DNA of 64,000 nucleotides. It comes from Mobula hypostoma. Taxonomy: Eukaryota. The position numbers and the translations under genes were made by a program. Below, piece by piece: positions 2,100 to 58,074 of the stretch. The stretch's first letter is position 1. Each line of letters starts with the position of its first letter. Location of the stretch: assembly GCF_963921235.1 (NCBI RefSeq), contig NC_086108.1, positions 42,286,001 through 42,350,000 of the forward strand, given 5' to 3'. Under the pieces are notes generated by a model, which had not been told where the DNA came from, did no database searches, and worked only from the letters and a program-made list of their open reading frames with translations.

Positions 2100-2482
2100 C
2101 ACCCCCCCCCTTCACCATTTCCCATCCCCTTTTCCCTCTCTCACCTTATCTCCTTGCCCCCCCCATTGCTTCCCTCTGGTGCTCCTCCCCCCTCTTCTTG
2201 CTTCCATGCTTCTGTCTCTGTCAGCAATTAACTTCCCAGCTCTTCACCTCATCCCTCCTGCTCTGGCTAAACCTATCACCTTGTGTGTTTCTCTCTCCCC
2301 TCCCCTTCCCCCACCTTTTAAATCTACTCCTCGGCTTTTTTTTCTCCAGTCCTGCCAAAGGGTCTCAGCCCGAAATGTTGACTGTACTCTTTTCCATAGA
2401 TGCTGCCTAGCTTGCTGAATTCCTCCAGCGTTTTGTGTGTGTTGCCTTGGATTTCCAATATCTGCAGATTTTCTCTTGTTTG
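2100..2482 (+). mobile_element. Penelope-like element 3' region (pyrimidine-rich UTR plus terminal repeat with degenerate hammerhead)
   Basis: C/T-rich tract followed by cagtc-ctgccaa-agggtctcagccc-gaaatgtt-gactg and the same tail as the other copies. Confidence 0.7.
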
Positions 2483-2734
2483 AAATCAGTTTCATAATGT
2501 TTTAATTTTACCAATGCTGTTAACGGTTTGACTGCTTTTTCCCCATGACAGACGTGTTGAGTGAAATCCTTACAATTCCGTACCTTGGGTGCATTATTTA
2601 AAATATTAAAAAGAATAAAACCCTCACCCTCCACTTGCTCCACCTCTTATGTGTTACTTTTCACTTCCTGTTACATATGAGATGCACGTTAAATCACAGA
2701 ACAATGGTGTAAATGACACAAAGTGTCAGAAGTT

Positions 2735-4860
2735 TAGAACATAGAACAGAAAATCCACAGCACAATACAGGCCTTTCGGCCCACAAAGCTGTGCCGAACA
2801 TGTCCTACCTTAGAACTAACTAGGCTTTACTCATAGTCCTCTATTTTTCTAAGCTCCGTGCACCTATCCAGAAGTCTCTTAAAAGACCCTATCGTATCCG
2901 CCTCCACCACCATCGCTGGCAGCCCATTCCACACACTCACCACTCTCTGCGTAGAAAACACCTCCGACATCTGCTCTGTACCTACTTCCAAGCACCTTAA
3001 AACTGTGTCTTCTGGTGCTAGCCATTTCAGCCCTGGGAAAAAGCCTCTGACTATCCACATGATCAATGTCTCTCATCATCTTATACACCTCTATCAGGTC
3101 ACCTGTCATCCTCCGTCGCTCCAAGGAGAAAAGGCCGAGTTCACTCAACCTATTCTCATAAGGCATGCTCCCCAATCCAGGCAACATCCTTGTAAATCTC
3201 CTCTGCACTCTTTCTGTGGTTTCCATATCCTTCCTGTAGTGAGACGACCAGAACTGAGTTCAGTACTCCAAGTGGGGTCTGACCAGGGTCCTATATAGCT
3301 CCAACATTACCTCTCAGCTCTTAAACTCAATCCCATGATTGATGAAGGCCAATGCACCATATGCCTTCTTAACCACAGAGTCAACCTGCGCAGCAGCTTT
3401 GAACGCCTTATGGACTCGGATCCCAAGATCCCTCTGATCCAAGAGCCAAGAGTCTTACCATTAATACTATATTCTGCCATCATATTTGACCTACCAAAAT
3501 AAACCACCTCATACTTATCTGGTTTGAACTCCATCTGCCACTTCTCAGCCCAGTTTTGCATCCTATCAATGTCCCGCTGTAACCTCTGACAGCCCTCCAC
3601 ACTATCCATAACATTCCCAACCTTTGTGTCATCAGAAAATTTACTAACCCATTCCTCCACTTCCTCATCCAGGTCATTTATAAAAATCACAAAGAGTAGA
3701 GGTGCCAGAACAGATCCCTGAGACACACCACTGGTGACCGACCTCCATGCAGAATATGACCCGTCTACAACCACTCTTTGCCTTCTCTGAGCAAGCCAAT
3801 TCTGGATCTACAAAGCAATGTCCCCTTGGATCCCATGCCTCTTACTTTCTCAATAAACCTTGCATGGAGTACCTTATCAAATGCCTTGCTGAAATCCATA
3901 TACACTATATCTACTGCTCTACTTCCATTAATGTGTTTAGTCACATCCTCAAAAAATTCAGTCAGGCTCATAAGGCACAACCTGCCTTTGACAAAGCCAT
4001 GCTGACTATTCCTAATCATATTATACCTCTCCAAATGTTCATAAATCCTGCCTCTCAGGATCTTTTCCATCAACTTACCAACCACTGCAGTAAGACTCAC
4101 TGGTCTATAATTTCCTGGGCTATCTCTATTCCCTTTCTTGAATAATGGAACAACATCTTCAACCCTCCAGTCCTCCGGAACCTCTCCCATCCCCATTGAT
4201 GATGCAAAGTTCATCGCCAGAGGCTCAGCAATTTCCTCCCTTGCCTCCCACAGTAGCCTGGGGTACATCTCATCCGCTCCTGGTAACTTATCCAACCTGA
4301 TGCTTTCCAAAAGCTCCAACATGTCCTCTTTCTTAATATCTACATGCTCAAGCTTTTCAGTCCGCTGTAAGTTAACCCTACAATTGCCAAGATTCTTTTC
4401 CGTAGTGAATACTGAAGCAAAATACTCATTAAGTACCTCTGCTATCTCCTCCAGTTCCATAAACACTTTTCCACTGTCACACTTGATTGGTCCTATTCTG
4501 TCATGTCTTGTCTTCTTGCTCTTCACATCCTTGTAGAATGCCATGGGGTTTTCCTTAATCCTGTCCACCAAGGCCTTCTCATGGCCCCTTCTGGCTCTCC
4601 TAATTTCATTTTTAAGCTCCTACCTGCTAGCCTTATAATCTTCTAGATCTCTATCATTACCTAGTTTTTTGAACCTTTCGTAAGCTTTTCTTCTTGACTA
4701 GGTCTACTACAGCCTTTGTACACCAGGATTTCTGTATCCTACCATCCTTTCCCATCTCATTGGAACATACCTATGCAGAACTCTGCGCAAATATCCCCTG
4801 AACATTTGCCACATTTCTTCCGTACATTTCCCTGAATTCATCTGTTTCCAATTTATGCTT
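2735..4860 (-). mobile_element. CR1 LINE, 5'-truncated, ORF2/RT fragments
   Basis: ORFs 3765-4571, 3307-3774 and 2879-3226 carry PGNYRPVSLT, QHGF, DFSKAFDKV, QGSVLAPLLF, KFSDDTK and ERVQRRFTRM; (tagaaca)-type tail. Confidence 0.95.
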
Positions 4861-4927
4861 TATGTTTAAAACTGTGTTGGATGTTCTGGGCATGATCTGA
4901 AATTTCTCTGTTTTATGATTGATTTAG

Positions 4928-5011
4928 GTAAATGAACATTTGAAGGCAATAGTTACCCAAGAGCAGAAGTTGAGGCGACCTCAAGGGCCAGAAATATCTG
5001 GAAGTCAAAGG
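4928..5011 (+). CDS. CAMSAP2: CAMSAP2 internal exon (84 nt, phase 0/0): VNEHLKAIVTQEQKLRRPQGPEISGSQR
   Basis: Acceptor tttag and donor gtagga; translation resembles recalled human CAMSAP2 VNEHLKDIMEQEQKLKEHHTVEAPGGQK. Confidence 0.9.
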
Positions 5012-5889
5012 GTAGGAACTGAGATTGAACTTCGTCTCTCAAAAAATAATTTAATATGTGAGAATATAAAAATATGGGCTTTATAGTGGTCAAATGTGTA
5101 ACTCCTTTGCCTGTCAAATAGCAGAATGAATATTTATCTCTTAGAATTACCTCATTGACAAGTCATTTTTTTCAAGGTAGCACTTTTCTATGGATAAAAA
5201 GCTGCACTTTGAGATATGCTGACAGTATTCCTTGGTGTTGTAAAACACTACCACATGATCAGGGTGATGGTAAACTAACTACCAAATTGGAAGGTAAACT
5301 TTGCACTTGAAACAGCACAAAATCAATGGTATAAATACCAAGACAGACTTCAATATTTCATTAAACAAAGCCCAGATGTCATTGACGGAATGCAGAAAAT
5401 GTAGGTCGTTTCAATTGAGTGATCTGAGTTGGAGTATTTGGGTGGATTCCAATTGAGTTAGTGATATGAATTAGATTATCATCAGAGATAAACAGTTATC
5501 ATTATTACAGCAACTGTTTCACATATTCTGTTCATAAACCAATTTCCTGAAGTCAGATTTTTTTCATACCAGTTCAGAAGCACAATGTAGAGTTTACATC
5601 AATTTACATCATCTTGGTGAAAGTCAATTGGTGAAAGCCCTCAAATTTTTGACCAAGGCATAAGAGTTACATTTTCCCAGCCAAAACTCCATGGCAGTTA
5701 GCAGCAGAGGCAAATCATACTGGTGAAGATTGGCTCTTGTTGACTATGTAACAACTGTAATGGTGTATAATACTGATTTGCATTCAAGAAATCGACCTGA
5801 TACAGATTTTAGTTATTCAAAATGCATAAAGGAAGATTAGTATGACAGTGGTGGACAGAATTTGGAAATGTACAGAATTGCCAAAGATA

Positions 5890-5999
5890 TCAGAATCAGG
5901 TTTAATATCACCAGCATATGTCGAGAAATTTGTTGTTTTGCAGCAGTGGTACATTGCAATAATTGGTAATAAAAACTGTAAATGAGAATAAGAAGTGTA

Positions 6000-6030
<31 letters not shown>

Positions 6031-6230
6031 GAAATGAATTAAATAGTGCAAAAAAAGAGGGGGAAATATTTTGGAAGTGTTCATGGGTTCATTGACAATT
6101 CAGAAATCTAATGGTGGAAGAGAAGAAGCTATTCCTGAAATGTTGAGTGTGTGCCTTCAGGCTCCTGTACCTCCCCTTCGATGGCAGCAATGAGAAGAGG
6201 GCATGTCCTGGGTGATGGGGATATTGGTGA
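5890..6230 (-). mobile_element. Rex1/Babar LINE 3' end with (TG)n(TA)n microsatellite
   Basis: Reverse complement of the 3' end of the Rex1 copy at 44990-46725. Confidence 0.75.
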
Positions 6231-6769
6231 CAAAAACTGTGTAGTCACTTTTAACAATTTATGATTTTTGAATGGAAGACTTTCATATTTAACAGTGGAA
6301 TGTGAGAATGACAGACAAAGCAACATGTTGTAGAGCTATGTGACAAGCACAGATACTCTTGGCCTTACTGGTTTTTGCGTTGTTTTCTTTCAAGATATCA
6401 TTAACTGACAGTAAAGCGGGATAGCCCTGATTTTAGTTGCTGCCCACCAACCACAGAAACATGATTTATATATGGAGTCCTGTCCAAGCTGACCCTCTGC
6501 ACCAGAGAGTCCTCCTACCAGCGAATCTTCAGACTCCCTTCTTTTCAGCTCCCAGAACTCTCTGATAGTCTTTTGACAACTTGCTAGTCAACGTCCCGAG
6601 CTAGTGTCAGATGCCTCCAACAAGTGGATACATCTAAAAGCAACACAAATAGGCTTGAGTCATCAAATGAAACATATAAAATAATTCAGAGCATTTTAAA
6701 CTTCAAGAAATTAATTGAAAAGATAAAGAATAAGTAAACTACTCACCTACACTCAGAAGTTTGGTAGGA

Positions 6770-7699
6770 GTAGGAGGAGGGATGGGTTAGTAAGTTGGCT
6801 AATGACACAAAGGTTGGAGGTGTTGTGGACAGTGAGGAGGATTGTCAGAGGTTACGGTGGGACATTGATAGGATGCAAAACTGGGCTGAGAAGTGGCAGA
6901 TGGAGTTCAACCCAGATAAGTGTGAAGTGGTTCATTTTGGTAGGTCAAATATGATGGCAGAATATAGTATTAAAAGAGTCTTGCAGTGTGGAGGATCAGA
7001 GGGATCTTGGGGTCTGAGTCCATAGGACACTCAAAGCAGCTGTGCAGGTTGACTCCGTGGTTAAGAAGGCGTACGGTGTATTGGCCTTCATCAATCGTGG
7101 AATTGAATTTAGAAGCCGAGAAGTAATGTTGCAGCTATATAGGACCCTGGTCAGACCCCACTTGGAGTACTGTGCTCAGTTCTGGTTGCCTCACTACAGG
7201 AAGGATGTGGAAGCCATAGAAAGGGTGCAGAGGAGATTTACAAGGATGTTGCCTGGATTGGGGAGCACGCCTTATGAGAATAGGTTGAGTGAACTCAGCC
7301 TTTTTTCCTTGGAGCGACGGAGGATGAGAGGTGACCTGATAGAGGTGTACAAGATGATGAAAGGCTTTGATCGTGTGGATAGTCAGAGGCTTTTTCCCAG
7401 GGCTGAAATGGTTGCCACAAGAGGACACAGGTTTAAGGTGCTGGGGAGTAGGTACAGAGGAGATGTCGGGTAAGTTTTTTACTCGGAGAATGGTAAGCGC
7501 GTGGAATGGGCTGCCGGCAATGGTGGTGGAGGCGGATACGATAGGGTCTTTTAAGAGACTTCTGGATAGGTACATGGCGCTTAGAAAAATAGAGGGCTAT
7601 AGGTAAGCCTAGTAACTTCTAAGGTAGCGACATGTTTGACACAGCTTTGTGGGCGGAAGGGCCTGTATTGTGCTGTAGGTTTTCTGTGTTCTATGTTCT
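6770..7699 (+). mobile_element. CR1 LINE 3' fragment, same subfamily as 2735-4860
   Basis: ORFs 6795-7025 and 7042-7473 (LVRPHLEYC, RRMRGDLIEVYK); tail ttctgtgttctatgttct. Confidence 0.95.
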
Positions 7700-8329
7700 G
7701 AGGAATTAAAGGGAAAAAATTATAATCCGTGCATCTCATGTGCATGTATTTTGCATTTTTTTCTCATCTCTTATGTGTTAGATATTACCCTGCAAAATTT
7801 TTTTTGCAAACAAAGCCTGCTAATTCCTGTTTTGTTCTCAGAATTATTTATTTATTTGTTGTTTGTTAACTATAAGACATATTTTGTTTGATGTTCTTCG
7901 TTTGGTTGTTTTATGCAAAAGTACATCCTGTAATAGGACAGGTAAATCTGAGGTCCAACCTCAACGGCTAACGCATCACAGTTCTATTTGGATCATTGGG
8001 AAACAGACTGGCAAGTAAAATACTCGTACACTAATCTTCAGTTTCCAAACAAATGAAACTAAAAGTGGTTATAGTCTTTATTTATTAATATTATGAGTTT
8101 GAACTGAAACTGAAAATTATGGAAATTCTCAGCAGGACATTCTGGAAATGTGAAGAGAGGAACAGAATTAATGTTTCAGAACTTTTCACATGCTTGGCCA
8201 GTCTGTTTCAGTACAGCTACAACAATGAAATCTTCCTGACCTGACAATGTAGGAAGTTGTCCAAAGTGCAGAATACAAAGTTGTGATATTCAGTGACGTG
8301 CGCAATGTTCAGCAGCGTTCGTGACTCCC

Positions 8330-9130
8330 CAAACAATAAAAGAGTCCACAACCAAGTGCAGTAAGACAGGCCAGGACTGATAGGTGGCAAGTAACACAGG
8401 TTCCAGGCAGTGATAGTAACAAGAAAATCCATCGCTCACTTCTTGTCATTAGATGTATTAGCATCACTGTATCCTCCACTATCAATATTCAGGGATGTGT
8501 GTTGGGGGGGGTGGGTGTTACCAATGCACAAAAACTAAAGTGGAGTATCCATATACACAGTGTGGCAGGTAAAAGGCTCAGAATCCTGTGGCAAGTAACT
8601 CGCCTCCCATCTCTCCTAATCCTGTTCATCATCTACAAGGCTCTAGTCAGGAGTGTGATAGAACATTTCCCAGTTGCCTCGATGAGCACAGCTTCAGCAA
8701 GCTCAAGCAGCTCCACACAGGGCAGAGCTGCCCACTTGGTGGGCGTCCCATTCACAACTGTTCACTCACTTCACTGATGCACGGTAGAGCCGGTTTGTAC
8801 CATCCACAGGGTGCAGCTGCACTGCAGCAACCAGCCAAGATCGTTGGCCAGCACCTTCCAAACATTTTCGGCAAGCGAGAAGGACAAGGGCCTCAAGAGC
8901 AGGGGGACACCACCACATAAGCCACACAGCATTCTGACTTGCAAGAATGTTGTTCCTTCAACATTGCTGGCCAAAACCTTAGAACTCTCCTTCACAGCAT
9001 TATGGATGTGCCCATACCTCAAGAGCTGCAGCAGTTCAAAAAGGCAGTAGACTGCCATGTTCTCAAAGCAACTAGAGATGAGCAATTAAGTGCTGACTCA
9101 GCCTGTGAAGTGCACATCCCTTGAATGAAA
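8330..9130 (+). mobile_element. Old divergent CR1-group LINE 3' fragment
   Basis: ORF 8499-8777 LKWSIHI...IYKALVRSVIEH resembles the post-RT region of CR1-group LINEs. Confidence 0.65.
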
Positions 9131-11997: not shown

Positions 11998-12250
11998 TCT
12001 GTCAGTGGCTTTCTGTGCTGTTCCAGAGCATGCTCTATCCATCTGAACACCTTTAATGCTCAGTATTGAATCTGACATCTCTGGTAATGCTCTTTCTCTG
12101 CCTGTACAATTACTCTCCAATCTATGCTGTAAGTCATCTACCTGCAATACAGATTCTGTTTTTTTTTTCTCTCTCCATGAGCACAGCCTGGTCTGCTGGA
12201 TATTTCACAACATTTTACATTTGTTTTATCTATTGTTGTTCTCTAGCCAG

Positions 12251-13121: not shown

Positions 13122-13122
13122 C

Positions 13123-13728: not shown

Positions 13729-14169
13729 TCTATCTGTGGGCATTAACCTATCAATCACTACTTATCCCCATGGTAAACGTGCCCAACAGATATGCCTTTT
13801 TTCATGTCTATCCTAACTTATAATTAATTTGTTCTACTTTCCCAGTTCTAACAAGAAACTCTGTTTCTGACCTGCTGAGTGTTTCCAATATTTTCTGCTT
13901 TTCTTATAGTTCATTTAAACCGTGTAACCATTTTTCCTTCATAGTTTGCATGCATTGAGAGACAGAATTATACAAAGTTGTGAATGAGACAAATGTACCT
14001 GGAATATTTCACAAAACTGTTCAAATCATTTTATCTTTTCATCATTCAGTGAAGAACAGTAAAGGATTTAGAAATAATTCATATGAATCTTGACAAAATT
14101 GTGACTTTCTTTTTTCTCCCCCTCATTGCTTCCATCCTTTCTCTCTCCTTGATGCTGCTACGTGTGAAG

Positions 14170-14202
14170 TCTCCAACCAAATGGTATTGGAAACTGGTTC
14201 CT
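14170..14202 (+). CDS. CAMSAP2: CAMSAP2 33-nt small exon (phase 0/0): SPTKWYWKLVP
   Basis: aag acceptor after a long pyrimidine tract and a perfect gtaagt donor; matches the CAMSAP motif SPSKWFWKLVP. Confidence 0.9.
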
Positions 14203-16750: not shown

Positions 16751-17580
16751 CAGTGTTTCCCAACCTTTTTATCCCATTGTCCCCTGAAAGCACTTTCATA
16801 CCTGCCAATGCCCCTCTTAGGCACAATGTATTTTCCAGCACCCCCATAGTATAAAAGTATGTCTACCAAATGCTAACATAAGAAAAATGATTCTGCTTCA
16901 AATTTTTATTTGTCTTTAAACCTAGCTTATGCAGTACCTTTATGCTATCAGCAGCTTTGATATCAATGTAATCCTTGAGCTTGATGGTTTTTAGGAAGAG
17001 TTGAAATACCTGGTTCAAGTTGTGACAGCAAGAGCCTTAAGTCCCCAGGCAAAACAATGTCCAAGCGGTTTCTGTTTTTTGTGAGTATGTGACTCACTGC
17101 ACTAAAGCTTCTTTCAACAAGTTAGGAAGATGGAAATGCAACAAAGAGCAGCTTGGCTCTTCTCTAAAGACCAGGAGAATTCGTATGACAGTGTAGGCAC
17201 GTACCACTAAAGCCAACATTTTTGAAAAGCGTTTCTGCTTTTTCATCATTCTAAATTTCGATAATTTCTTTTTGCAAGCTCTCTTCCTGTTCTTTCACCT
17301 TCCAAAGAAATGGGTTAATTACTCAGTCCAGAATTTCCAGATTGTTCAAATTCTTGAATCGATTCTGAAAATCCTCCTTCAGTGACTGCAGATGTAAGCA
17401 GTACTCTTGGAAATTACTGTCTATGAAAGAGAGTGCCATACTTTCCATGCAGGGAAATTTTGAGAACATTTTTCTCCCAGTGGTTTGCTTATATATTTCT
17501 AATTTTTTGATAAAAGTGGACACTGCACTTTTTGCCTGGGTTAAATTGAAATTCTCACCCTGCAAGTTCATACTTGGAAT

Positions 17581-17775
17581 TGCAAACATGAGGAATTCTG
17601 TAGATGCTGGAAATTCAAGCAACACACATCAAAGTTGCTAGTGAACGCAGCAGTCCAGGCAGCATCTCTAGGAAGAGTCCTGACGGAGGATCTCGGCCTG
17701 AAACGTCGACTGTACCTCTTCCTAGAGATGCTGCCTGGCCTGCTGCGTTCACTAGCAACTTTGATGTGTGTTGCT
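17581..17775. mobile_element. Mini-PLE inverted-repeat insertion with hammerhead motif
   Basis: TSD tcatacttggaat (17568-17580, 17775-17787); 60-bp inverted arms. Confidence 0.85.
17676..17711 (+). ncRNA. Minimal type I hammerhead ribozyme motif (A9>G variant)
   Basis: AGUC-CUGACGG-AGG(AUCUCGG)CCU-GAAAC-GUC-GACU: stem I, core, stem II, palindromic minimal stem III and GUC site. Confidence 0.7.
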
Positions 17776-18336
17776 CATACTTGGAATGTTCATTTTGTCA
17801 TACCAATTGGCTAGGTATGCCACATCTCCACGTAGAAGTTCAGTCTTGTTTCCCAAGCTCTTGTTGACTTTGAGCAAAAATTCAATCACAGTGTCAAAAA
17901 GATCAAAGAAATGTTTTAAGTAGCAGCCTTTTGACAGCCAAGCTCACTTAAGTGTGAAGAAGCAAGAGTTCAAACTCTTCATCGTTACCTTGGCCTAACT
18001 GACAAAATATTCTACTTAATGGATGAGTTTTAATTTTGTTGATAGCAGATACTACAAGGGTCATGCTTGAAAAAAGTCACTGGCTGAGGCTTTTAGCTGC
18101 GAGATGTTGATGATGAATTACATGATAGATTGCAAATGGACTCGGAATTTCTTTTTTCATAAATGCGACTTGCCATATATGGTGCTCCATCTGTTACACA
18201 AATCATCATGTTCCTAATCACAATACTTTTATGCTCAGTATACATTTTGAGCTTGTCGTAGATTGATTCTCCGTTGATATTTGTTTTTAACTTTTTACAA
18301 AAGAGATTCTCTATAAGATTTTCCACTTTTGATAAA

Positions 18337-19172
18337 CAAGTGGAATGCAAAAGTTTGGGCACCCCGGTCAAAATTTCTGTTACTGTGAATAGCTAAGCAA
18401 GTAAAAGATGAACTGATTTCCAGAAGGCATAAAGTTAAAGATGACACAGTTCTTTAATATTTTAAGCAAGAAAACTCTTTTTCCATCTTTTACAGTTTCA
18501 AAATAACAAAAAAGAGAAAGGGCCTGAAGCAAAAGCTTGGGCACCCTGTATGGTCAGTACTTAGTAACACCCCCTTTGGCAAGTATCACAGCTTGTAAAC
18601 ACTTTTTGTAGCCAGCTAAGAGTCTTTCAATTCTTGTTTGGGGGATTTTCACCCATTCCTCCTTGCAAAAGGCTTCTAGTTCTGTGAGGTTCTTGGGCTG
18701 TCTTGCAGGCACTGCTCTTTTGAGGTCTATCCACAGATTCTCGATGATGTTTAGGTCGGGGGACTATGAGGGCCATGGAAAAACCTTCAGCTTGCGCCTC
18801 TTGAGGTAGTCGATCATGGATTTTGAGGTGTGTTTATGATCATTATCCTGTTGTAGAAGCCATCCTCTTTTCATCTTCGGCTCTTTTTACAGACGGTGTG
18901 ATGTTTGCTTCCAAAATTTGCTGGTATTTAATTGAATTCATTCTTCCCTCTACCAGTGAAATGTTCCCTGTGCCACTGGCTGCAACACAAGCCCAAAGCA
19001 TGATCGATCCACCCCTGTGCTTAACAGTTGGAGAGGTGTTCTTTTTATTAAATTCTGCACCCTTTTTTCTCCAAACATACCTTTGCTCATTGCGGCCAAA
19101 AAGTTCTATTTCAACTTCATCAGTGCACAGGACTTGTTTCCAAAATGCATCAGGCTTGTTTAGATGTTCCTT
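18337..19172 (-). mobile_element. Tc1 transposon fragment with IR/DR end
   Basis: End caagtggaatgcaaaagtttgggcacccc with inner direct repeat near 18528-18546; minus-strand WPS*SPDLNIIENLW and QAVILAKGGVTKY. Confidence 0.9.
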
Positions 19173-19326
19173 TGAACCTTTTGAATAGAACTGAGAGGAC
19201 TGGAAAATCTGGTAAGATGAGAGGAGACAAAAGACAGGAAATTATGGAGTGTTTATCCTGACCACAGTGGTTGGTAAGAAGAAATTTCTGAGTACTTGGA
19301 ATATTATGGTAAAATAGAGGACTTGG

Positions 19327-20958: not shown

Positions 20959-21022
20959 GATAAGTTAGGAGAGTGAACAAAGAAGTAGCAAATGAAACAG
21001 AAGATAGGGAAGTGTAGTGTTA

Positions 21023-21231
21023 CACATAAAAGTTGCAGGTGAACGCAGCAGGCCAGGCAGCGTCTATAGGAAGAGGTACAGTTGACGTTTTGGACCGAGA
21101 CCCTTCATCCTGACCCGGCCCGAAACGTCGACTGTACCTCTTCCTATAGATGCTGCCCGGCCTGCTGCGTTCACCAGCAACTTTTATGTGTGTTGCTTGA
21201 AATTCCAGCATCTACAGATTTCCTCGTGTGT
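21023..21231. mobile_element. Mini-PLE inverted-repeat insertion with two partial hammerhead motifs
   Basis: 15-bp TSD ggaagtgtagtgtta (21008-21022, 21232-21246); about 75-bp inverted arms; same unit as 17581-17775. Confidence 0.85.
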
Positions 21232-21954
21232 GGAAGTGTAGTGTTATGCACTTTGGTAAGGAGAATAAAGGTGTAGACCAATTTCTAAATGGGGAGAGAA
21301 TTCAGAAATTGGTGGTACAAAGAAACTTGAGCGTTGTAGTTCAGGATTCCCTTAAGGATAGCTTGCAAGTTGTGTTAATGGTAAAGAAGGCAAGTGGAAT
21401 GTTAGTATTAATGTACTGCTAAGGTTTTATAAGATGTTGGTCAGACCACATTTAGAATACTGAGATCAAGTTTGGGTTGTATTAAGATTGAGATTGATAG
21501 CTTTCTGATTGGTAAGGGGGTTAGGGGTTACAGGGGAAAGGTCAGAGAATTGGGTTGTAAAATAAAAATCAGCCATGATTGAATGGCAGAGACTCAGTGG
21601 GCTGAATGGCCAAATTCTACTTCAGTATCTTATGGTCTTATCAGCTTTTTCTGAAACTCATCTAAATTACCCCCTAAACTTTTATTCTCCATGACAATAC
21701 CAGCCTAATTTGTACAGAATATTTTCTCACTTTCCAAAGTAAATCATCAGAACCTTACATAAGTTCTGTCAATCATCCAACCAGTGCTTTATAAGGTTGT
21801 GTAAAATTCCCCATTGTATCCCAGCTATTGAGTTTTAAGGGCTCCTTTTCATTTAAGGGTTCCTTCTCATTTGCTATTTTGATTTGTTTTTATTTGATTG
21901 CTACAGTTTAGTGATTTTTGAACAAGAAATCCTCATAAAGGTTAGACCCAAAAT

Positions 21955-23602: not shown

Positions 23603-25535
23603 CAGTGCCTTGTAAAAGTCTCAGCCCCCAACAATGAGTATTTCAAGCAGGGATTTTGATCAATTTAACTGAGAATTTTTATTTGTAAATCATGTGCTCT
23701 TTTTTTTCCACAGTAGAGCCCAAAAAACCAGGGAAAATTGTAAAGTATGAAAAACTAAAAGTTCAAAACCTGAGATGTCAGCAGTTCAATGGTATTCATC
23801 CCCCTTAGTTCAGTATTTGATTGAACCACCTCCTGCAGCTATTCCAGCCTGTAGGCTTTTTGGGTAAGTCTCTATTAGCTTCACACAATGTGATGGAGCA
23901 AGATTTGCCCATTCCTCCTACAAAATTGCTCAAGCTGTGCCAGGTTAGTTGGAGAGTGACAGTGGACAGCAACCTTGAGGTATTGTCAGAGATGTTCGAT
24001 TGGGTTAAGGTCAGGACTCTGACTGGGCCACTCAAGGACATCAATTTTCTTCATTTGAAGCCACTCCATGGTTGCTCTGGCAGTGTTCTTTGGGTTGCTG
24101 TGCTGCTGAAAGACAAACTTCCTCCCCAGTTTAAACTTTCTGGCAGAGGCTAGCAGGTTTTTATCCAGGATCTCTCTGTACTTAGCTGCATTCCCATCAG
24201 TCCTGACCAGATACCCCGTCCCTACTGCTGAAAAGCATCCCCATAGCATGATGCTACCTCTACCAAGCTCTACAGTAGGGATGGTATTACCTGGCACTTG
24301 TGCAATATTAGATTTACGTCACATGTAAAGCTTAATATTGAGGCTAAAAAGTTCCACTTTAGTCTCATCTGACCGCAAGACCTTCTTGCACATCTTTACA
24401 GCATCTTCAATGTGACGCTTTGCAAAGTCTTTAATAGGCATGGATATGCTTTTTTCTTTAGCCTAGATTTCTTCCTTTTCACTCTTCAATAAAATACCCA
24501 TTTTCTGCAAAGCCCTAGGGATAGTGGAGTCATGAACTTCATCATTTATTACTCTTCCAGTTTTTTTTCGAAGTTTTAGATTTGATCAGAAAGTCTTTCT
24601 TTTTTTTGGTCGTATCCTCAAAATGCACTGCCCAGACCCTTTTTTTTTGTTTCTTTTTTTATATAGTGCAGTGGGGTTTTTTTTCTTCATTTAAAATTAA
24701 ATGCTTTTTCTTTCCTATTCATGAACTGGTAGGAGGAGAATTGCTGTTTTTTTTATTATATATTTTATACTAGCTTACCAATATGTCTGATTTTGATAAT
24801 GTCTATCTTAATCTTGGTTTGTATTGTTATTGATATATATATATATTTGAGATAATTCTCCTCTTGTTTGTATTTATGTTCCTTTTAAATCAATAAAGAG
24901 ATTAATAAAGAAAGAACTTCATCTCCAGTTGCAGCCACTAACTGCTTGCAGCTCACAAGGAGGCATCACAGTAGCCTCTCTTCAGGTGTCATTTTCCACT
25001 GGCAGCTAAATTTAGAGGTGTGACCTAACCTAGACAGTGTGGCTGTGGTTTCATATTTTTTCCACTTTTTCAAGATGGACTGCACTAAGCTCCGAGGTCT
25101 GATCCGTGCCTTTGAGATAGTCTTGTACCCTTCCCCAGATTTGTACTTCCCTATTATCATTTCCCTCACTTGCCTTGAATGCATTTTGTTTTCATTTTGG
25201 TTTGGTCTGTTGAAAATCTACCAGATTGTTGGACATTACAAAGGGAGGGGTTATTGATTCAGGTGATGTTCCAATTTTTCTAATCAACAAATTGGATGCG
25301 TTGGTAAGGTAATGAACAGTATTGCACCTGAGGAAAGTTCCCAGTAATTACCAAGGGGATGAATACTTTTTCAGCCTCACAATTTTGGTTTTTAAATTTT
25401 AGTAAATTGTGGACAGTTTTTGGTATTTTTCTTTTGATTTGACATGATACACAATGCTTTATAGATTAGATCAAAACACCAATATATTTTAAATTTAGAA
25501 AATGAGGCAGTAAAATGCAAAACCAGTTGTGGGTC
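23603..25535 (-). mobile_element. Near full-length degenerate Tc1 transposon
   Basis: TA|cagtgccttgtaaaagt end; N-terminal HSRQVREMIIGKYKSGEGYKTISKA; catalytic region [10 protein letters not shown] and [14 protein letters not shown]. Confidence 0.92.
24544..24913 (+). mobile_element. T-rich retroposed fragment (L1/Tx1-like 3' UTR) inserted in the Tc1
   Basis: 10-bp TSD gaacttcatc (24534-24543, 24914-24923); ends aatcaataaagagattaataaagaaa. Confidence 0.65.
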
Positions 25536-34820: not shown

Positions 34821-34880
34821 AAACTGGTAGAAAGAATCAGTGACACTTAATTAATTCAGTGTGTAATTTTCTTGTCCCAG

Positions 34881-44000: not shown

Positions 44001-44989
44001 AATCCTTTTTGAACCCAATACGTATACAAAACTTTTTAAACCAGAAAGGAATATTTCCAGTCCTTTTTCGATAAAATGACTATGGCTCAAAAAGCAAATA
44101 TTGAAATACACAGTTGTACAAAATCATAGTATTAAAACAAGATAAAACAAATTATAGGATTCTGACCAGTTTATTAACTGGTCTCAGTAATAAATCATTT
44201 CTGTCCAATGTTGTATTCATTATTAATATCATAACATTGCAGCAAAATATAAATCTTTTCAGTCTTAATAATGTTTTATTAAATCATTTGGTAACAATTT
44301 CTTGTGATGAATTACAATTATTCATGCATCAAAATAAAACCAGCAGCTGTGCATTAATAGTGGCATTGTAAAAGAATAGAGTTCCAATATTTTTGAATTC
44401 TGTATTGTCTTTGAGAGGGAGGGGTAGGGTGGGGAGAGAGTGAGTGAGCAGAGTAAAATGTGTGTGTTTGGGTTGGAGAGTTCAGTTAAGGTAATAGAGC
44501 GGGGGGATGTAATGGGTCTAGTAGTAGGTTGGGGTACATCATTGATGGAGGGCAGAATGGAACAGTGCAAGGCAGAAGTACTTCTCTTGCCCCTCTCTTC
44601 CTCCCACTGCTCTCACACACCCTCCACACGGTCTGCATCACTCGCCCTCACTCCCACTGCCCTCTCATTCTCCCTCCCTCCAAACTCTCACTCCCCACAC
44701 CAGCCAGCTCTCTCTTTCTTGCCCCATACCCCCGGACCTCTTTCTCTCCATCCAAGCCCTCTCCCTTATACACCCATCACTATCTCATTTCTGCCATACT
44801 CCCAGTCCTCCTCCTCCTTCACCCCTCCCCCACACGACCCTCTCATTCTCCCCCAAACCCCGAGCCTTCTTTCTTTCTTCCTCCACTCCATGGTTCTCTC
44901 TAATTCTCTTTCTCTTCCTCCTATCTCTTCAGTTTTATCATACTACTTCTGGTGTTCTTTTGTCAGTCACCTTCAAATACCTGTCTGTG

Positions 44990-46725
44990 TACTTTGTCAA
45001 CAAGACTTCCTGCAGAGCAAAACCCAACAGCATGAATGGCAGTGATGCTTCACTACCAGATGAGCTCAACTCCTCTATGCCTGCTTTGGAAGGGACCATA
45101 TAACTACAGCTGTTAATATCCCTGCTGCACCCTGTGATCTCTGTCTTGGAGGCCAATGTCAGGCTGTCTTTAAGGAGGGTGAACCCTCGTAAGGCAGCAG
45201 GCCCCGATGGAGTAGCTGGTAAGGCTCTGAAAACTTGTGCCAACCAACTGGCAGGAATATTCAAGAACATTTTCAACCTCTCACTGCTGCAGATGGAAGT
45301 TCCCACCTGCTTCAAAAAGGCAACAATTATACCAGTGCCTAAGAGGAATAATGTGAGCTGCCTTAATGACTATTATCCAGTAGCACTCACATCTATGGTG
45401 ATGAAATGTTTAGAGAGGTTGCTCATGGCTAGAATAAACTCCTGCCTCAGGAAGGATCTGGATCCACTGCAATTTGCCAAACGCCACGGTAGGTCTATGG
45501 CAGACACAATCTCAATAGCTCTTCACGCAGCCTTAGATTACCTGGACAATGTCAAGAAGCTGTTCATTTTCTGTAGCTCAGCGTCTAACACAATCATTCC
45601 CACAGTCCTGATCGATAAGCTACAGAACCTGGGCCTCTGTACCTCCCTCTGCAAATGGATCTTCGACTTCCTAACCAAAAGACCACAGTCTGGTGCGGAT
45701 TGGTGATAATACCTCCTCCTCGCTGACGATCAACATTGGTGCATCTCAGGGTTGTGTGCTTAGTCCACTGTTCTGCTCCCTCTCGACCCATGACTGTGTG
45801 ACTAGGTATCGCTGAAATAGCATCTACAAATTTGCTGGTGATACAACCATTGTTGGTAGAATCTTAGATGGAGACAAGAGGGTGTACAGGAGTGAGATAT
45901 ACCAACTGGTTGAGTGGTGTTACAGCAACAACCCGGTACTCCACATCAGTAAGATGAAAGAACTGATTGTGGACTTCAGGAAGGGTAAGACAAAGGAACA
46001 TGAACAATCCTCAGAGAGCAATCAGAAGTGGAGAGACTGAGCAACTTCAAGTTCCCGGTTGTCAAGATCTCTGAGGATCTAACCTGGTCCTAACATATCG
46101 ATGCAGCTCTAAAGAAGGCAAGACAGTGGCTATATTTTGTTAGGAGTATGAAGAGATTTGGTTTGTCACCAAAAACACTCAAAAACTTCTGTAAATGTAC
46201 CATGGAGAGCATTCTGTCAAGCTGCATCACTGTCTGGTGGCGGGGGGGGGGGAGGTTGGGGGTGCTACTACATAAGATCGAAAGAAGCTACAGAAAGTTG
46301 TAAAATTAGTCAGCTCCATCTTAGGTACTAACCTCTATAGTATCCAATATACCTCCAAGAAGTGGTGCCTGAGAAAGGCACCATCCATTATTAAGGACCC
46401 CCATCACCCAGGGCATGTCCTCTTCTCATTGTTACCATTAGGAAGGAGGTACAGAAGCCTGAAGGCACACACACAGTGACTCAGGAACAGCTTCTTCCCC
46501 TCTGCCATACAATTTCTAAACGGACATCGAACCCATGAACACTACCTCACTTTTTTAAAATACACACTATTTCTGTTTTTGCACTATTTTAATATATTTA
46601 ATATGCACATATATATACTTATTTGTTTTTTTCTTTCTATATTATCATGTATTGCAATGTACTGCAGCTGCTAAGTTAACAAATTTCACAACACATACTG
46701 GTGTTAATAGACCTGATTCAGATTC
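44990..46725 (+). mobile_element. Rex1/Babar LINE, 5'-truncated, degenerate
   Basis: ORF 45134-45706 [27 protein letters not shown]; tail ctgattcagattct. Confidence 0.93.
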
Positions 46726-50997: not shown

Positions 50998-51091
50998 AAT
51001 AACTATCTTGTATTTATGGCAGAGCTGTTTTGGTGGTTTGAGGTTGTGAAACCTCCTTTTGTACAGCCCAGATTGATTTCTCAGTTAGAAG
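50998..51091 (+). CDS. CAMSAP2: CAMSAP2 exon, CH domain end: NNYLVFMAELFWWFEVVKPPFVQPRLISQLE
   Basis: ttttttctttgcag acceptor, gtaaat donor, 94 nt phase 0/1; motif FMAELFWWFEVVKP. Confidence 0.95.
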
Positions 51092-51520
51092 GTAAATATT
51101 ACTGTTTGATGCTATGATATGTTGATGGTATTTTCAGTTGTCATTTTCTGGAGATATTGTCTGATGCAAAGAATACCCAGTGGTAGAAATTTTCTTTTCA
51201 ATCTTTTACTGTTTACCTGATGTGGTCATTCATGGCTTTGCCTGTTTTCTGTTGCCATCGAGATGTGTTGATCTTGGCTGTGGAAAAATAACACTGTCAA
51301 GCATTCCCAATTTAAATGCTTTTGTGTGACAGACCTATTAAAAGAATAAAGATAATGAAGATTCTCCCAATGTTACACAAGTAAACTATGCAGGGAGTTA
51401 ACCCATGAACAAGATCCCTGCGAATCTAAGAGGAGATAATACCTTTATTGGTAACATAGAGCAAACACACACGTTTACCATTTGTATATTTGTGCTTGCT
51501 GTAGAGACCCAAAAGCTCAT

Positions 51521-51622
51521 CAGTCCTGAAGAAGTGTCTCGGCCTGAAACATTGAATGTTTACTCTTTTCTACATAGATGCTGCCTGACCTGCTGAGCTC
51601 CTCCAGCATTTTGTGTGTGTTG
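51521..51622 (+). mobile_element. About 100-bp mini-PLE insertion beginning at a hammerhead motif
   Basis: 12-bp TSD caaaagctcatc (51510-51521, 51623-51634); cagtc-ctgaaga-agtgtctcggcct-gaaac-att-gaatg. Confidence 0.82.
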
Positions 51623-51700
51623 CAAAAGCTCATCTTAGTATTATGTGATTGTTTCTGCTTTCTGATTGTTTCTGTATTAATTATTTAACTTTATTCCTAG

Positions 51701-51806
51701 CAGAACCACTTCACACAACAAGAAATAAACCTGCTGCTTTCCTGATATCAAATGCTACCAGAAAAAGCTTCTTGGAAACTTCTCCCAACTCTGAGTCTGA
51801 TTGCAG
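51701..51806 (+). CDS. CAMSAP2: CAMSAP2 exon: AEPLHTTRNKPAAFLISNATRKSFLETSPNSESDC
   Basis: tag|cag acceptor, gtagaa donor, 106 nt phase 1/2; aligns with recalled AEPVKDMPSIPVLNAAKRNVLDSS and keeps the frame. Confidence 0.85.
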
Positions 51807-52879
51807 GTAGAATTTTGCTGAATTATTTAAGAGCATATATTTCCAGCAGGAAATAAGTAAAGCTAATCTAATTTCAACCAGATTAAGTTGCTTCAGCAGA
51901 GCTGTTAAATTAAATGATGTACACAGACTAATTTCTTAGTTTGTATATATAAACAAAGAAATTGAATTCCTGTAAGTGCTTCAAAAGACAAAATCCTTTA
52001 CAAGTGAGCAAGATGACTTTTAAATTTTATTATTTTCTGTTTGTAGCTTCATTGAAATAATTTTGTCTTAAAGACCACATTTTTGGATTTCATCATGGCT
52101 GTTATGTGCAATATTTGGCTACAGCTCAACAATACTCAATAGGCAGGCATTAATTTTGTGATTGATGAGGTGTCACTGACCAATGTAATTGCATCTGTAT
52201 TGTAATGGACACACCATTCCTATTGACAGGGAAGATGCCTCCCAGTACACAAACCCATCAATATAAAATAGGAGTCTTAGACATCACGGTGAATGTTCTC
52301 AACCCCGATAAAACTATAATCACTAAAGTTAGTCCATTTTCAATGCACAATACTCCAAATATGTATGGTTCTGCATTGTGCAAAATCAGACATCTTCGTG
52401 GCCATCAGATAAAGGTATGCAACTACAGTACAGAAACAAGCTGCAATCTCATCTCTTTAGTTCGCACAAATGCAAATTTGAATCCATTGAATGAAATCTT
52501 AACATGATTTGACCCTCTGTAAATTTGTTCTTATAAAAAGTTGGGTGGTCTTTCAAGATAGCACAGACACTCAGAGCTTAAAATATTATTTTGCAGTAAC
52601 ATAGCCTTGCAGTTGATTTTCATGCAGTACTAATGAATTCAGCTCCTTTTTGGTCTTGGTTATAGCAGTGATTGAATTGGTAAGTTGTCAGGATGCCTTA
52701 TTATTTAGTTAACTGACAGTTTTGTGAGACACAAAATTAGCAGACTGTAGAAAAAGTCTTCTGTTATATAATGAGTATAAATTATGCATTTATAATTCTG
52801 CTTGCAATGAATGTATTGGAAAAACTTGCTTCTACCTCAACAAATTCATAGTCTGACTACGAAATTGCTTCCTTTCCAG

Positions 52880-52962
52880 CAAAGGGAGTCCAACGTTTTT
52901 ACCATCACAGCCACTTCTGCCTCTGCGGCATACTCAACACCGACCACATCCTTCAGATTCAG
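52880..52962 (+). CDS. CAMSAP2: CAMSAP2 exon: SKGSPTFLPSQPLLPLRHTQHRPHPSDS
   Basis: cttcctttccag acceptor, gtacaa donor, 83 nt phase 2/1, bridging the neighbouring exon phases; resembles SGEGATFTQSHHHLPSRYSRPQAHSSAS. Confidence 0.85.
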
Positions 52963-53534
52963 GTACAAAAATGTGTTGCATACTTTTGCAGTATCTAATT
53001 GAATTCCTTTTGTTGGGTTCCAAATCTATAGTACTATCAGTAAATCTGTTAAACTCCATATTTTACACTTCCAGCAGATGTAACTGGATTAGAACAGTGA
53101 CAGGAATTGGGTTGCTTGATGCACCCTTAATTGGAGGCATGGCTGAGGTTGAGGCGGAACAAGTGTTTTTTGAAAATTGGCAAAAATTCTTTTCATTTGT
53201 ATATTTTGTCCCCAATTACAAAATCCAGAGCCCTTCACTGTTTTTTTAAATTTTTATTGAAGGAATGACACAATACAGAATACATAATGCATTACATTTT
53301 CCTCCATTTTGTTTTATATCTTACTCCTAAACAAAAATCCCCTCACCCACCCTCCCCCGAACATACCATGACAGCTAATATAGTTACAATACAACACTTC
53401 ACAAGTACAAGTACGGACATTTCACAGCCATACCCCCACATTCCTTCAAGACGAAGGCCCACACACATCCACAATGTGTCAGATGATCCAGAATACACTC
53501 ATATTACAATGACCAACCACCCTATGAGGTAAAC

Positions 53535-54316
53535 CAGGGGTCCCCAACCTTTCTTGCACCGCCGACCGGTTTAATATTGACAATATTCTTGCGGACTGGC
53601 TGACCGGGGGGCGGCGGTGGGGTGGGGGGGTGTTCAAGTAGGGTCAAACTCACCTCAACATGTCTTTTACAGTTAGGGTAAAAACATGTCTTTTACAGTT
53701 AAGGGACAAAAGTAGCAGTCAAATCCCGGGACCCTTTACCCCAGGAAAGACTACCATGACCATGAAGCCTTGTGCATGGTACGCATGCGTGACGTGCACA
53801 TGTGATATACGCATGCGCATACGTGCCGATTTTCCCCCCACAAATCAGTTTTGCCTTCATCTTCCCGACTATACTGTACTTACATGATTTCTACTTTATA
53901 TAGGCTGTTTATTTATCATATCATTCCTGCTTTTACTATATGTTAGTGTTATTTATTTTCGGTTTTATGTGTTATTTGGTATGATTTGGTGGGTTATTTT
54001 TTGGGTCTGGGAACACAAAAGTTTTTCCCATATAAATTAATGGTAATTGCTTCTTCACTTCACGCCACTTCGGCATGAAAGGTTTCATAGGAACGCTCTA
54101 CCTTAGTGGGGGAAATACGGGACAAGGGCGGTTCCGTATGGGACAAACCAATTTAGCCCAGTATACGGAATGTCCCAGCAAATATGGGACAGTTGGCAAC
54201 CCTATGTTCAAGTTCAACAGTGCGTGACAGGGAATGAAGAAAGGTGCAGCTGACTCGTATCATTTCCTCACAGCCCGGTAGCACATGCTTTGCGGCCCGG
54301 TGGTTCGGGACCGCTG
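53535..54316. mobile_element. hAT (Charlie-type ends) MITE
   Basis: TIRs caggggtccccaacc / ggttcgggaccgctg; perfect 8-bp TSD aggtaaac (53527-53534, 54317-54324). Confidence 0.9.
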
Positions 54317-54514
54317 AGGTAAACCATATGCACGTTAAAGCCCTTCGCTATTCTTGACTGATTCTTCAACTTGTCCTAAACTCTTATTTATTCTTTAATT
54401 TATATCAACATTTCGTCATTGTTTACTCTCCATTTGTCTCAAATCTCTCAGCTTCTGCCATTTTGCTGCCACCATCTTAACCTTCCCTAACACATCAATT
54501 TCTAGGGATAAAAG

Positions 54515-54700
54515 TAAAGTGGCAGAAATGGGCAGCATCTGCAGAGAGAGGGGTGGAGAGAATTAATATTTTAGGTTGTGAAGGATCATTGACCTGAAAT
54601 GTTGAGTCTGTTTCTCTTTCTGCAAATGTAGCCTAATCTGCTGAAAATTTCCAGGTTCTTTGTTTTTACTTCAGATTTACAACATCTGTTTTCCTTTTTT
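54515..54700. mobile_element. Old inverted PLE-type terminal repeat
   Basis: ggcagcatctgcagagaga arm facing gaaggatcattgacctgaaatgtt...tctgcaaatgtagcc. Confidence 0.55.
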
Positions 54701-55729
54701 GACTTTCTATTTCCTGGCATCTCCTCACTTCCCCCAGCAGATCTAGTGGAGTATTATGAATGATACGAAATTTTTTGACATTCTAGAAATTACTAACTAA
54801 CTAACTATATCACAACTCCCAGGATCACCATGTTGGCCAGCCATTGTAAGCAACAGTTGGCTCACTTTGTTATGGATGTTAACGAGTCTTAAGCATCTGT
54901 TTCTGCTGCAGTTCAGATATCCCCACTGAAACTGATGAGTTCAAAGAGCAAATTTCACTGATTTTACTAACACTTGAATGCTAAGTAATTGATTTGTACC
55001 ACTGTTTGCTTCGATTTAAATTTGATTTATAAAGTAAACTGGCCCATCTTTGCAGAATAATGCATAATGCTTTTTCATATTAAAGTATCATTCCAACTTG
55101 CTGTTTCTGGTCTCTGGAGTTTATATTTTTAATGGTATTCCTGAACAAACAATTTGTATCAATAGTAAGTATTGAAAATTATTTGCAAGGAAATATTTTA
55201 ACCAGCTTGATGTTGTATTGTAAAATTTTCACTTCTTTTAATTCATTCTCTGAGACCACTTGGACTCTTCTGCAGGAAGAACTAAGTCTGAGATCTGCTT
55301 TATTTGCACGTGAAAATATATGGCTTATCCTCTTTACCAAGTCATTGTTGAAACATTGCTTTTTACTTCATTCTTCAACTCCCTGAAGTTCTTCAAATTC
55401 AGGTGTACTTGATCATGTCTTTTGTACAAGTAAAGCATTGGCACTTATTGATTTTTTTTTAAAAAGCCACCTGAGAACAATGTATGACACACAACCCTAC
55501 TAATGGCTTATCCAATATTGCCACAGTATGATACAAGGAGAGGGAGAAACCATTCAGCCCATTTTGCCTTTCAGTTAGCTCATGGCTGAGCTATCCTTCA
55601 ATCAGAACTCCAGAAATGAAACAAAATCTAGCAACATATCTATTTATATAACTACTTGACTATATACAGTAAAAGTCATGCCATGAAGATATAATCAGGA
55701 TTAATGGTCATTGAGTCAAAGTGAGAGAT

Positions 55730-56545
55730 AAAGCGCCTAGAAAAAAGCATTCCCCACCCTTGTAAGTTTTCATGTTTTATTGTTTCACAACATTGAATCA
55801 CAGTGGATTTAATTTGGCTTTTTTTGACACTGATGAACAACTGAAAAAGACTCTTTTGTCTCAAAGTGAAAACGGATCTCTACGAAGTGATCTAAATTAA
55901 TTACAAAGATAAAACACAAAATAATTGATTGCATAAGTATTCACCCCTTCAAGTCAGTGTTGAGTAGTTGCACCATTGGCAGCCTTGAGTTTGTGTGGAT
56001 AGGTCTCTATCAGCTTTGCACATCTGGACACTGCAATTTTTCTATATTCTTCTTTACAAAACTGCTTAAGCTCCGTTAGACTGCATGGGGATTGTAAGTA
56101 ACAGCCCTTTTCAAATCCAGTCACAAATTCTCAATTGGATTGAGGTCTGGACTCTGTCTTGGCCACTCCAGGACATTAACTTTGTTATTTTTCAGCCATT
56201 TCTGTGTCGCTTTGGCTTTATGCTTGGGGTCATTGTCTTGCTGGAAAACAGATCTTCTCCCTAGGTGCAGTGGTCTTGCAGACTGCATCAGTTTTCCTCC
56301 AGGATTTCCCTGCATTTGTTTTATCCTGTACCTTAAAAAGCCTTCCGGTGCCTGCTGAAAAGTTGTTCTTTCTTGGACTAATAATAATATGGAAATACTA
56401 GTTGTTCCAGAAGCCATTAAATTTTTGAGGTGCTATAGAGTCTTTCTCTGTTGATCTGTGTCAAAAAAGCCAAATTAAATCCACTGTGATTCAATGTTGT
56501 AAAGCAATAAAACATGAAAACTTCCGAGGGGGGTGAATATTTTGA
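55730..56545 (-). mobile_element. Internally deleted Tc1 transposon
   Basis: About 90-bp inverted ends; [13 protein letters not shown] and [14 protein letters not shown]. Confidence 0.9.
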
Positions 56546-57958
56546 TCAAATTAGGTCAAAGAGAAGGTTTTAATAGGGTGAAGAAATTATGTATGTAGTA
56601 ATAAGAGAAACCTGACAAAGTATTTGCAGCAAATCACTAAAGGTGACTGAACAATTTGAAAAACTGTCTTGTTTTGGAAATAAAAGTGAATGAATCCTGG
56701 GATTTATTTATACAGTGCAAAAGCAAAAGTGTGTGCTAAACTTGCAATGGAGGATCTGTTAGTCTCTGACGGAAGTATTGCATTGAGTTAAGGTCATGTG
56801 ACACACTTACTCTAATTTGTGTCATTAGTGTTTCAACATAAGCTCAAGGAACTACAACTGCAATTAAGGCATAATGTTGAATTAAATGAGTTCAGATGAC
56901 AAGCCTGACCAGTTTTAATGAAAGGTTGTTGACCTGAAATATTGTCTCAGATTCTGTCTTCACAGATGTTGCCTGCTCTTTTGAGTTCTTCCAGCATTTG
57001 TGTTTTTATACTGGAAAGGTCTGTGTGTTTGAGGGTACTTAAGATAATGGAGAATCAACAGCTCATATGTTCCTCTTGACGAATGGCCAAAGACGCCTGA
57101 TGGCTAGAGTCAGTGGAACATATTATTCTGTGCAGAACTGTCGGGCTGCTAGAAGGTACCGATGTAAGGAGTCAGTGGGTTTGTATAGACGATTCAGCAT
57201 GAGAATAAAAACTGGAAATAGGAGACGTTAGGGAGCCAGAATTGAGGAGCGTCAGTGAGAAAGGTGATCAATTTCGTCACTCTGTGCTAACTTAATGGAA
57301 CTTTTCTGGACAGAAGAAGGAACAGTATGATTGATTACAACAGCCTCGATTCAGAAGTATTAGAATCACAGAGGCTTGTAAATAAACTGGGATGAGTTAA
57401 GTCATGCAGAGGGAATTTGTATCCTACACAGAGATTCAGGAGGGATGTATTTTATATTAATATTTAATTTATTTTGGAATAAAATACAATGCATATTACA
57501 AAGGGCCTTAAGTTGTTCTTTTTTGGACTAATAATAATATGGAAATACAAGTTGTTCCATAAGCTGTTAAAGTTTTGAGGTACAACTTGGTATTTTTAAC
57601 AGAAAGATCGAGATTCTGACATTGTCTATGAAAAAGGCATTGCACCTACAGTAACAATCTGATAATCGGCTTTTGTATTGTTTGAAAATCTTGATTGAGA
57701 TCAGGCTTGCTTCGATCTGTTTCTCATACTTCCTTTAAATTCAATGGGACCCTGGTTTCCATGCTCCCTTTAAACACCTTAGTGGAAATTTATTACACTT
57801 CTGTGTAACATCTTAAGTAAATTAAAAATATATTGCTGTAGTAATAGGATTTATATCTAATAATGTAAGGCACTTGTCTTTCCAAGACTACCAAAGTCCT
57901 GAGGGTGTCGGATTATTTTCAATTCATAACTAAAGTTACTTAATTTTTTTCCTTTTAG

Positions 57959-58031: not shown

Positions 58032-58074
58032 GTTAGTGACATTTTAAAAGGCGTTTTATTGAGGATTATCTTGT

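Follow-up and report, generated by a model that had tools for sequence, protein, structure and literature searches.

Short hammerhead-bearing repeats in and around a CAMSAP gene of Mobula hypostoma as probable terminal-repeat pieces of a Penelope-like element

What are the short repeats with hammerhead ribozyme motifs that recur through a 64,000-nucleotide stretch of the Mobula hypostoma genome (contig NC_086108.1, positions 42,286,001 to 42,350,000 of the forward strand), and are these motifs under selection in the CAMSAP gene that lies on the same stretch? We call the whole stretch the window and count positions from its first letter. A first-pass annotation had proposed a retrozyme-like or SINE (short interspersed nuclear element)-like derivative of Penelope-like elements (PLEs). 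Our analysis indicates, with a probability of about 0.75, that the units are dead terminal-repeat (pLTR) pieces of a hugely amplified, endonuclease-bearing PLE and that they were inserted by its enzyme.

One repeat family and its insertions

All seven places named in the first-pass annotation hold one repeat family, and their coordinates were borne out. A profile search of the window returned nine strong arms (E 1e-31 to 1e-17), which are in the model by construction because the profile was built from window copies, and two further weak arms at 54530-54578(-) and 8112-8179(-) (E<0.001). Independently of the profile, BLAST linked the units at 2347, 17.6 kb, 21.0 kb and 51521 (E 1e-9 to 1e-49), and a 20-base motif with at most 3 mismatches matched four times in the window and 0 times in shuffled sequence. 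The bare pattern CTGANGA..GAAAC alone was not above chance (2 window matches vs 1.48 expected), and the five matches of an Rfam search at E up to 5 included no hammerhead. Copy-by-copy inspection agreed with the annotation that every window copy is damaged at the core, a stem or the cleavage position. Faint possible relics of an older repeat variant were seen at 12131-12225 (+, E 0.035) and 13867-13895 (+, E 0.24).

The copy at 2347 gives the anatomy of the unit. A minimal hammerhead motif occupies 2347-2384 (+); it is damaged by A6C and by four CpG transitions including G8A, its stem I arms are complementary, and its predicted cleavage falls after 2379. The terminal-repeat body runs on the same strand from 2385 to 2445, the first 3' end, and an optional 37-base tail from 2446 to 2482, the second 3' end, both ends being taken from loose ends of contigs. 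Directly upstream of the hammerhead, composition and contig depth mark out a pyrimidine-rich tract (2098-2346, +, 81% C+T), which is single in the window. It belongs to a longer element and is probably the non-coding end of a PLE. The repeat at 2347 was thus correctly recognized, but this copy has no target-site duplication (TSD) and continues about 250 bases further upstream than had been described.

The claim that the short units inserted on their own was upheld by TSDs of 13, 15 and 12 bp on three insertions. Exact flanking duplications were found in three of the eight units tested (17568/17775, 13 bp; 21008/21232, 15 bp; 51510/51623, 12 bp); in a control search, 3000 random positions gave a duplication of at least 12 bp 29 times. 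The first of these insertions, at 17568-17787, was identified by BLAST, profile and TSD search and lies between duplications at 17568-17580 and 17775-17787. It had been described as a single plus-strand unit; this unit is present, but it is one half of a two-armed fold-back, in which a minus arm with the tail and without the hammerhead (17581-17677) meets a tailless plus arm that starts at stem I (17676-17774). The second, at 21008-21246 (profile and TSD search; duplications at 21008-21022 and 21232-21246), lies inside a fragment of a long interspersed nuclear element (LINE) and consists of a tailless minus arm (21023-21109) and a tailed plus arm with an 8-base hammerhead deletion (21108-21231). 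This insertion breaks the LINE fragment; once it is removed, the sequences on either side form an unbroken alignment with two other LINE copies of the window, and therefore the insertion is real. In both fold-backs the arms stand head to head, are joined by a 2-base microhomology and carry the tail on one arm only. The arms within each fold-back have variant bases in common, which suggests, at the level of sequence, that they come from one source element. The third insertion (51510-51634, +; profile and TSD search) is a single 101-base copy (51522-51622) reaching from stem I to the first 3' end; its 11 invariant core bases are intact and its helices I and III are broken.

Older copies, found by the profile, were without a detectable TSD. 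On the minus strand, the copy at 1392-1523 has the tail, starts near stem I and lacks the upstream pyrimidine tract. The unit placed at 54515 is indeed the repeat, in the fuller form of an old fold-back spanning 54515-54697, with a minus arm to about 54578 and a tailed plus arm from about 54574. A further old copy at 56909-57010 (+) starts at stem I and extends as far as the first 3' end. The weak old relic at 8112-8179 (-, E 0.0009) was absent from the first-pass annotation.

A genome-wide view was obtained from contigs of four public runs aligned to 2010-2580 at 80% likeness. Runs X1, X5 and X11 are DNA; X16 is RNA by guess only, in contig form, and is not evidence of transcription. The four runs gave 59,784, 54,277, 55,251 and 5,131 matching contigs. 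In X1 the summed depth, which is not a copy number, was about 8 in the flank, with single-copy sequence upstream of about 2090, and rose to 0.67 million (6.7e5) in the pyrimidine tract and to 2.1 million in the body. The tract is highly repeated in all four runs, and therefore long copies are common. Of 1942 loose-end rows 24 were listed, and of 464 joints 15; the counts that follow come from these. Behind 2445, 899, 864, 1110 and 151 contigs (X1, X5, X11, X16) have loose ends, and behind 2482, 681, 694 and 790 (X1, X5, X11). In each of the three DNA runs the repeat accordingly has a pair of 3' ends separated by 37 bases, and the window arms end at either one. At the other side, 588, 563 and 678 contigs have loose ends before 2358, where stem I letters follow a low-agreement consensus (0.42), and 25 contigs of X16 end at 2348. 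Opposite-strand joints were seen in all four runs, and three of the five listed have one side at 2358. The A6C change of the 2347 copy (window position 2355) recurs in a joint sequence of X11, and therefore it may mark a subfamily rather than the decay of a single copy.

Copy lengths do not form the smooth truncation ladder that was to be expected of simple truncated copies. The starts of five of the 11 arms lie no more than about 7 bases from stem I, around 2346-2352 (P=0.0002 for a 340-base range, P=0.025 for a 100-base range). In the three arms with this clustered edge that lie outside fold-back joins, the upstream sequence is 40-55% C+T, vs 82%, and holds no pyrimidine tract.

Probable kinship with Penelope-like elements

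The repeat had been said to carry a hammerhead of the dimer type, and the motif predicted from the family majority fits a minimal hammerhead ribozyme (min-HHR): the majority has the core boxes, the extra base between 9 and 10.1 and the G10.1-C11.1 pair, and the arms at 17676 and 21108 keep the palindromic, loop-less helix III and the short helix I intact. When three pairs of damaged window copies were co-folded at minimum energy, no hammerhead dimer formed. The minimal hammerhead was defined by Cervera and De la Pena (2014, PMC4209133). The min-HHRs of metazoan PLEs described there have the same core boxes, extra base after A9 and G10.1-C11.1 pair, the same loop-less palindromic helix III and a helix I of 4-5 bp, and they likewise occur as thousands of dispersed motifs per genome, most of them single, probably truncated PLE pieces. 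In the Schistosoma motifs of that paper helix II has 7-8 bp, whereas it has 4 bp by fold here, and abundance is far higher here, with about 55,000-60,000 contigs per DNA run vs 2,000-9,000 motifs there. No shark or ray terms were found in the supplement text of PMC4209133.

The structure of the insertions also supported the relation to PLEs that the first-pass annotation had proposed. The anole PLE enzyme nicks and extends both strands, and the 30-40 bp tail, which maps onto two internal reverse transcriptase (RT) initiation sites, is called unique to PLEs (Frangieh et al. 2024, PMC11167929). A typical PLE insertion has an inverted repeat, a tail on one arm and a TSD of 8-10 bp (Arkhipova et al. 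2013, PMC3846280; Craig et al. 2021, PMC8557442). The repeat here has the optional tail, with ends at 2445 and 2482, and the 37-base spacing of its two 3' ends agrees with the tail of 30-40 bp, which makes it a PLE signature. The inverted, 5'-truncated repeat was likewise found, in two young fold-backs with a TSD and an old one without. As in the insertions of the three papers, there are two 3' ends 30-40 bases apart that lie about 100-135 bases past the hammerhead, one-tailed head-to-head arms and TSDs. Unlike in those insertions, the fold-backs here are without coding sequence, the TSDs measure 12-15 rather than 8-10 bp, and many copies have one 5' edge in common. The open reading frame (ORF) of the anole element starts in the hammerhead (PMC11167929), whereas no ORF was identified here. 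We infer the link to an autonomous PLE from insertion structure and motif, on which membership rests. The repeat is a further, unusually abundant family of a described class, and its shared 5' edge is the unusual point.

Searches of sequence collections for the repeat gave chance matches or none. Metagenome contigs yielded 0 matches in a first scan and, in a second, 32 loci that were all chance matches with little beyond the pattern aligned; viral contigs yielded 0 matches, and the 7 in prokaryote genome contigs were all due to chance. When one reading frame of the 2347 copy served as a protein query, none of the 872 candidates was significant, the best ESM Atlas score (0.82) lay within the range of shuffled input, and a loose motif scan gave nothing convincing. 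A 14-base motif of the repeat was absent from the literature search, and the repeat was not found in the supplements of PMC4209133, PMC8557442 and PMC11167929, figures, one file and the bioRxiv supplements being outside that search, so that a family from cartilaginous fish may be listed in them.

The shared 5' edge and rival origins

These structures could arise if the PLE endonuclease made staggered nicks 12-15 bases apart, giving the TSDs, and if reverse transcription began at either of two internal sites of the element RNA, spaced by 37 bases, so that copies came out tailed or tailless. Priming from both nicks, with the two short cDNAs joined head to head, would produce the fold-backs, and long copies would extend into the pyrimidine tract. 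The initiation sites would also be present in the 5' repeat of the RNA, where the enzyme might start 98 or 135 bases in and run off the RNA 5' end; short copies would then stop at the start of stem I, which would be the first base of the element RNA. The hammerheads would be passengers in neutral decay, mostly at CpG. We infer the priming steps from the insertions, and we put forward run-off only tentatively as the cause of the 5' edge, a little short of an even chance. In the repeat of D. virilis Penelope, an internal promoter lies within the first ~50 transcribed bases (PMC2377424).

It is also possible, still more tentatively, that the short units are 'strong-stop'-like insertions, in which solo and fold-back copies would record the transcription start and copies that start some 32 bases further on would reflect cleavage by the hammerhead in vivo. 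If so, this would account for the solo state of most minimal hammerheads in animal genomes, and in-vivo use of the ribozyme would become countable from DNA. With the shared 5' edge as the RNA start, the 5' ends of many thousands of copies would count uncut vs ribozyme-cut templates, and such a count would help to decide whether the hammerheads of PLEs cleave in vivo; according to PMC11167929, cleavage was not needed in vitro, and no RNA reads ended at the cleavage site. The strong-stop idea was not found in print for Penelope-like elements, in a search that most subscription papers lay outside.

Several points weigh against the PLE reading or its run-off step. Among the 294 window ORFs of at least 58 aa, Pfam found no PLE domain and no GIY-YIG; it found 5 RVT_1 fragments, 4 transposase fragments, 2 ALKBH8_N, CAMSAP domains and one probably spurious match. 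An element with RT and GIY-YIG linked to the repeat was not found in the sequence collections searched, none of them an assembly of this genome, which gave chance matches or none. The pile-up at 2358 is partly an artefact: the reference copy is mismatched at 2355-2357, so that every 5' end a little upstream is clipped there, as are the long copies of variants that carry a different upstream tract. The loose-end support comes from the listed rows and joints counted above, and all runs are contigs, which cannot show a transcript start. Among the five clustered edges, two belong to old copies without a TSD, and another two are the joins of fold-backs. The sequence at 2346-2352 fits a splice acceptor as well as it fits an initiator.

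Within the same family of explanations, the units may be ordinary 5'-truncated PLE ends, with another cause of the 5' edge: the enzyme would tend to leave its template at the pyrimidine tract, or at a splice junction, immediately upstream of the hammerhead. Stem I is directly preceded by a T-rich run and an AG, an intron in D. virilis stops where helix I begins on its 5' side (PMC4209133), and heavy 5' truncation is the norm in PLEs (PMC8557442). However, the loose-end rows listed have no common upstream exon (agreement 0.37-0.42), the 51521 copy adjoins its TSD directly and carries no exon cargo, and many copies do extend through the tract; we consider this cause less likely than run-off, as a lesser share of the PLE reading. 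The fixed 5' and 3' edges, the TSDs and the very high abundance could also be those of a SINE-like partner of 100-135 bases, with its own internal promoter, transcribed solo and copied in trans by the PLE enzyme; the promoter of D. virilis Penelope and the ability of PLE terminal repeats to act in trans (PMC3846280) would agree with it. The SINE-like description thus stood as regards the fixed 5' edge and the TSDs, but a separate lineage is weakly argued against and seems distinctly unlikely: young and old window variants have the same edges, and there are many long copies, a pattern more simply explained if the short units are by-products of one PLE subfamily after another. The anole enzyme needs the first 172 ORF bases, beyond initiation sites starting at 111-118 (PMC11167929), and, purely by analogy, solo copies ending at initiation sites may be without the enzyme-binding element.

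The retrozyme label was not sustained. A non-LTR (long terminal repeat) retrozyme would consist of tandem monomers that the ribozyme cuts into circular RNAs, which re-insert. The terminal repeats of PLEs are the source of retrozymes, which were present in the single cartilaginous fish that has been examined (bioRxiv 10.64898/2026.07.22.740005), and three joints that go back, head to tail, were among the 15 of 464 listed. These head-to-tail joints rest on 1-3 contigs per run, however, and the window holds no head-to-tail copies. No two or more consecutive tandem units with complete hammerheads were found there, and the cleavage site (2380) is the start of no arm among the 11, the closest start lying about 8 bases downstream. 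Non-LTR retrozymes resemble the repeat in being non-coding and in their type I hammerhead, kinship to PLE repeats and long TSDs (PMC7229834; bioRxiv 10.64898/2026.07.22.740005); unlike them, the repeat has no tandem units, no monomers running from cleavage site to cleavage site, and a damaged minimal motif, whereas the retrozymes of PMC7229834 have canonical motifs in tandem units of 150-450 bases. A retrozyme origin is thus highly improbable, and terminal-repeat pieces of a PLE remain our preferred reading.

Hammerhead decay and the host gene

Separate from origin is the question of selection. The first-pass annotation had suggested that same-sense copies in the CAMSAP pre-mRNA pair in cis and cut the RNA, and that they are selected for broken cores. 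Damage is indeed present in every copy, and sense copies carry two core changes outside CpG (A6C, A9G). The strand counts, however, showed no bias (6 sense vs 3 antisense, p=0.51; 8 vs 5 with weak relics, p=0.58), and non-CpG core changes were not in excess: they affect 2/35 sites in sense arms vs 10/232 in the bodies of four related arms (p=0.66), and one young antisense arm has 0/7 non-CpG core sites changed. Better cores in the sense orientation, as noted at first, are a descriptive fact, but this rests on 4 young sense arms vs 1 young motif-bearing antisense arm and is the opposite of what selection predicts.

Decay was instead driven by CpG. The count covered the five young arms that carry the hammerhead and left aside both the old copies and the arm that lacks it; here CpG-able sites had changed in 11/49 cases vs 7/122 for other sites (p=0.004), so that 11 of 18 hammerhead substitutions fall at CpG-able sites. 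Positions G8 (if base 7 is C), G12, 15.2, 16.2 and 17 lie in CpG, and therefore methylation decay breaks cores anywhere. The same changes at G8, 15.2 and 17 are common in the genome-wide contigs, where, in reference-biased alignments, the consensus base is missing in at least a third of the depth.

Further points argue against cleavage in cis. Sense copies are separated by 3.4 to 30 kb. Even in adjacent tandem min-HHRs cleavage is poor, and single ones show none (PMC4209133); the anole hammerhead motif needs its protein (PMC11167929). The 21.0-kb motif is buried in its own long predicted hairpin. A literature search on strand bias of intronic hammerheads gave nothing relevant, and passages of PMC10761166 were of no help. 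Selection on sense copies is not supported and appears very improbable, the window being too small to exclude a weak genome-wide effect. The decay of the hammerheads looks neutral, and the 5' edge is the part worth following up.

Both young fold-backs are predicted to form near-perfect RNA hairpins, at 17618-17775 (stem of ~60 bp, -126 kcal/mol) and 21022-21197 (~76 bp, -143 kcal/mol). The hammerhead lies in the loop of the 17.6-kb hairpin and within the stem of the 21.0-kb one. In CAMSAP pre-mRNA, these modelled hairpins are possible substrates of A-to-I editing.

The CAMSAP gene itself was confirmed on the plus strand by Pfam CAMSAP domains. Its exons were placed at 14170-14202, from 32514, near 34880, at 50998-51091 and within 58920-61184 (14170-61184 overall). 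The exon at 14170-14202 (+) is a 33-base micro-exon with AG/GT ends, and the next exon found lies ~18 kb downstream. Repeat units from 17.6 kb onward sit in CAMSAP introns; those at 1392 and 2347 lie upstream of the first CAMSAP exon found, probably in the preceding intron of the gene.

Other elements were also seen in the window. Two inverted LINE copies (2827-3666 and 6768-7606), ~89% alike, stand 3.1-3.5 kb apart, with a third at ~21.9-22.8 kb. A second pyrimidine-rich tract at 44590-44940, unlike that at 2098-2346, lies just upstream of an RT fragment at 45104. Fragments of DDE and Sleeping Beauty-type transposases occur at 18557-19241, 23821-25217 and 56124-56432, and the last of these is surrounded by 81-base inverted repeats at 55744-55824 and 56463-56543.

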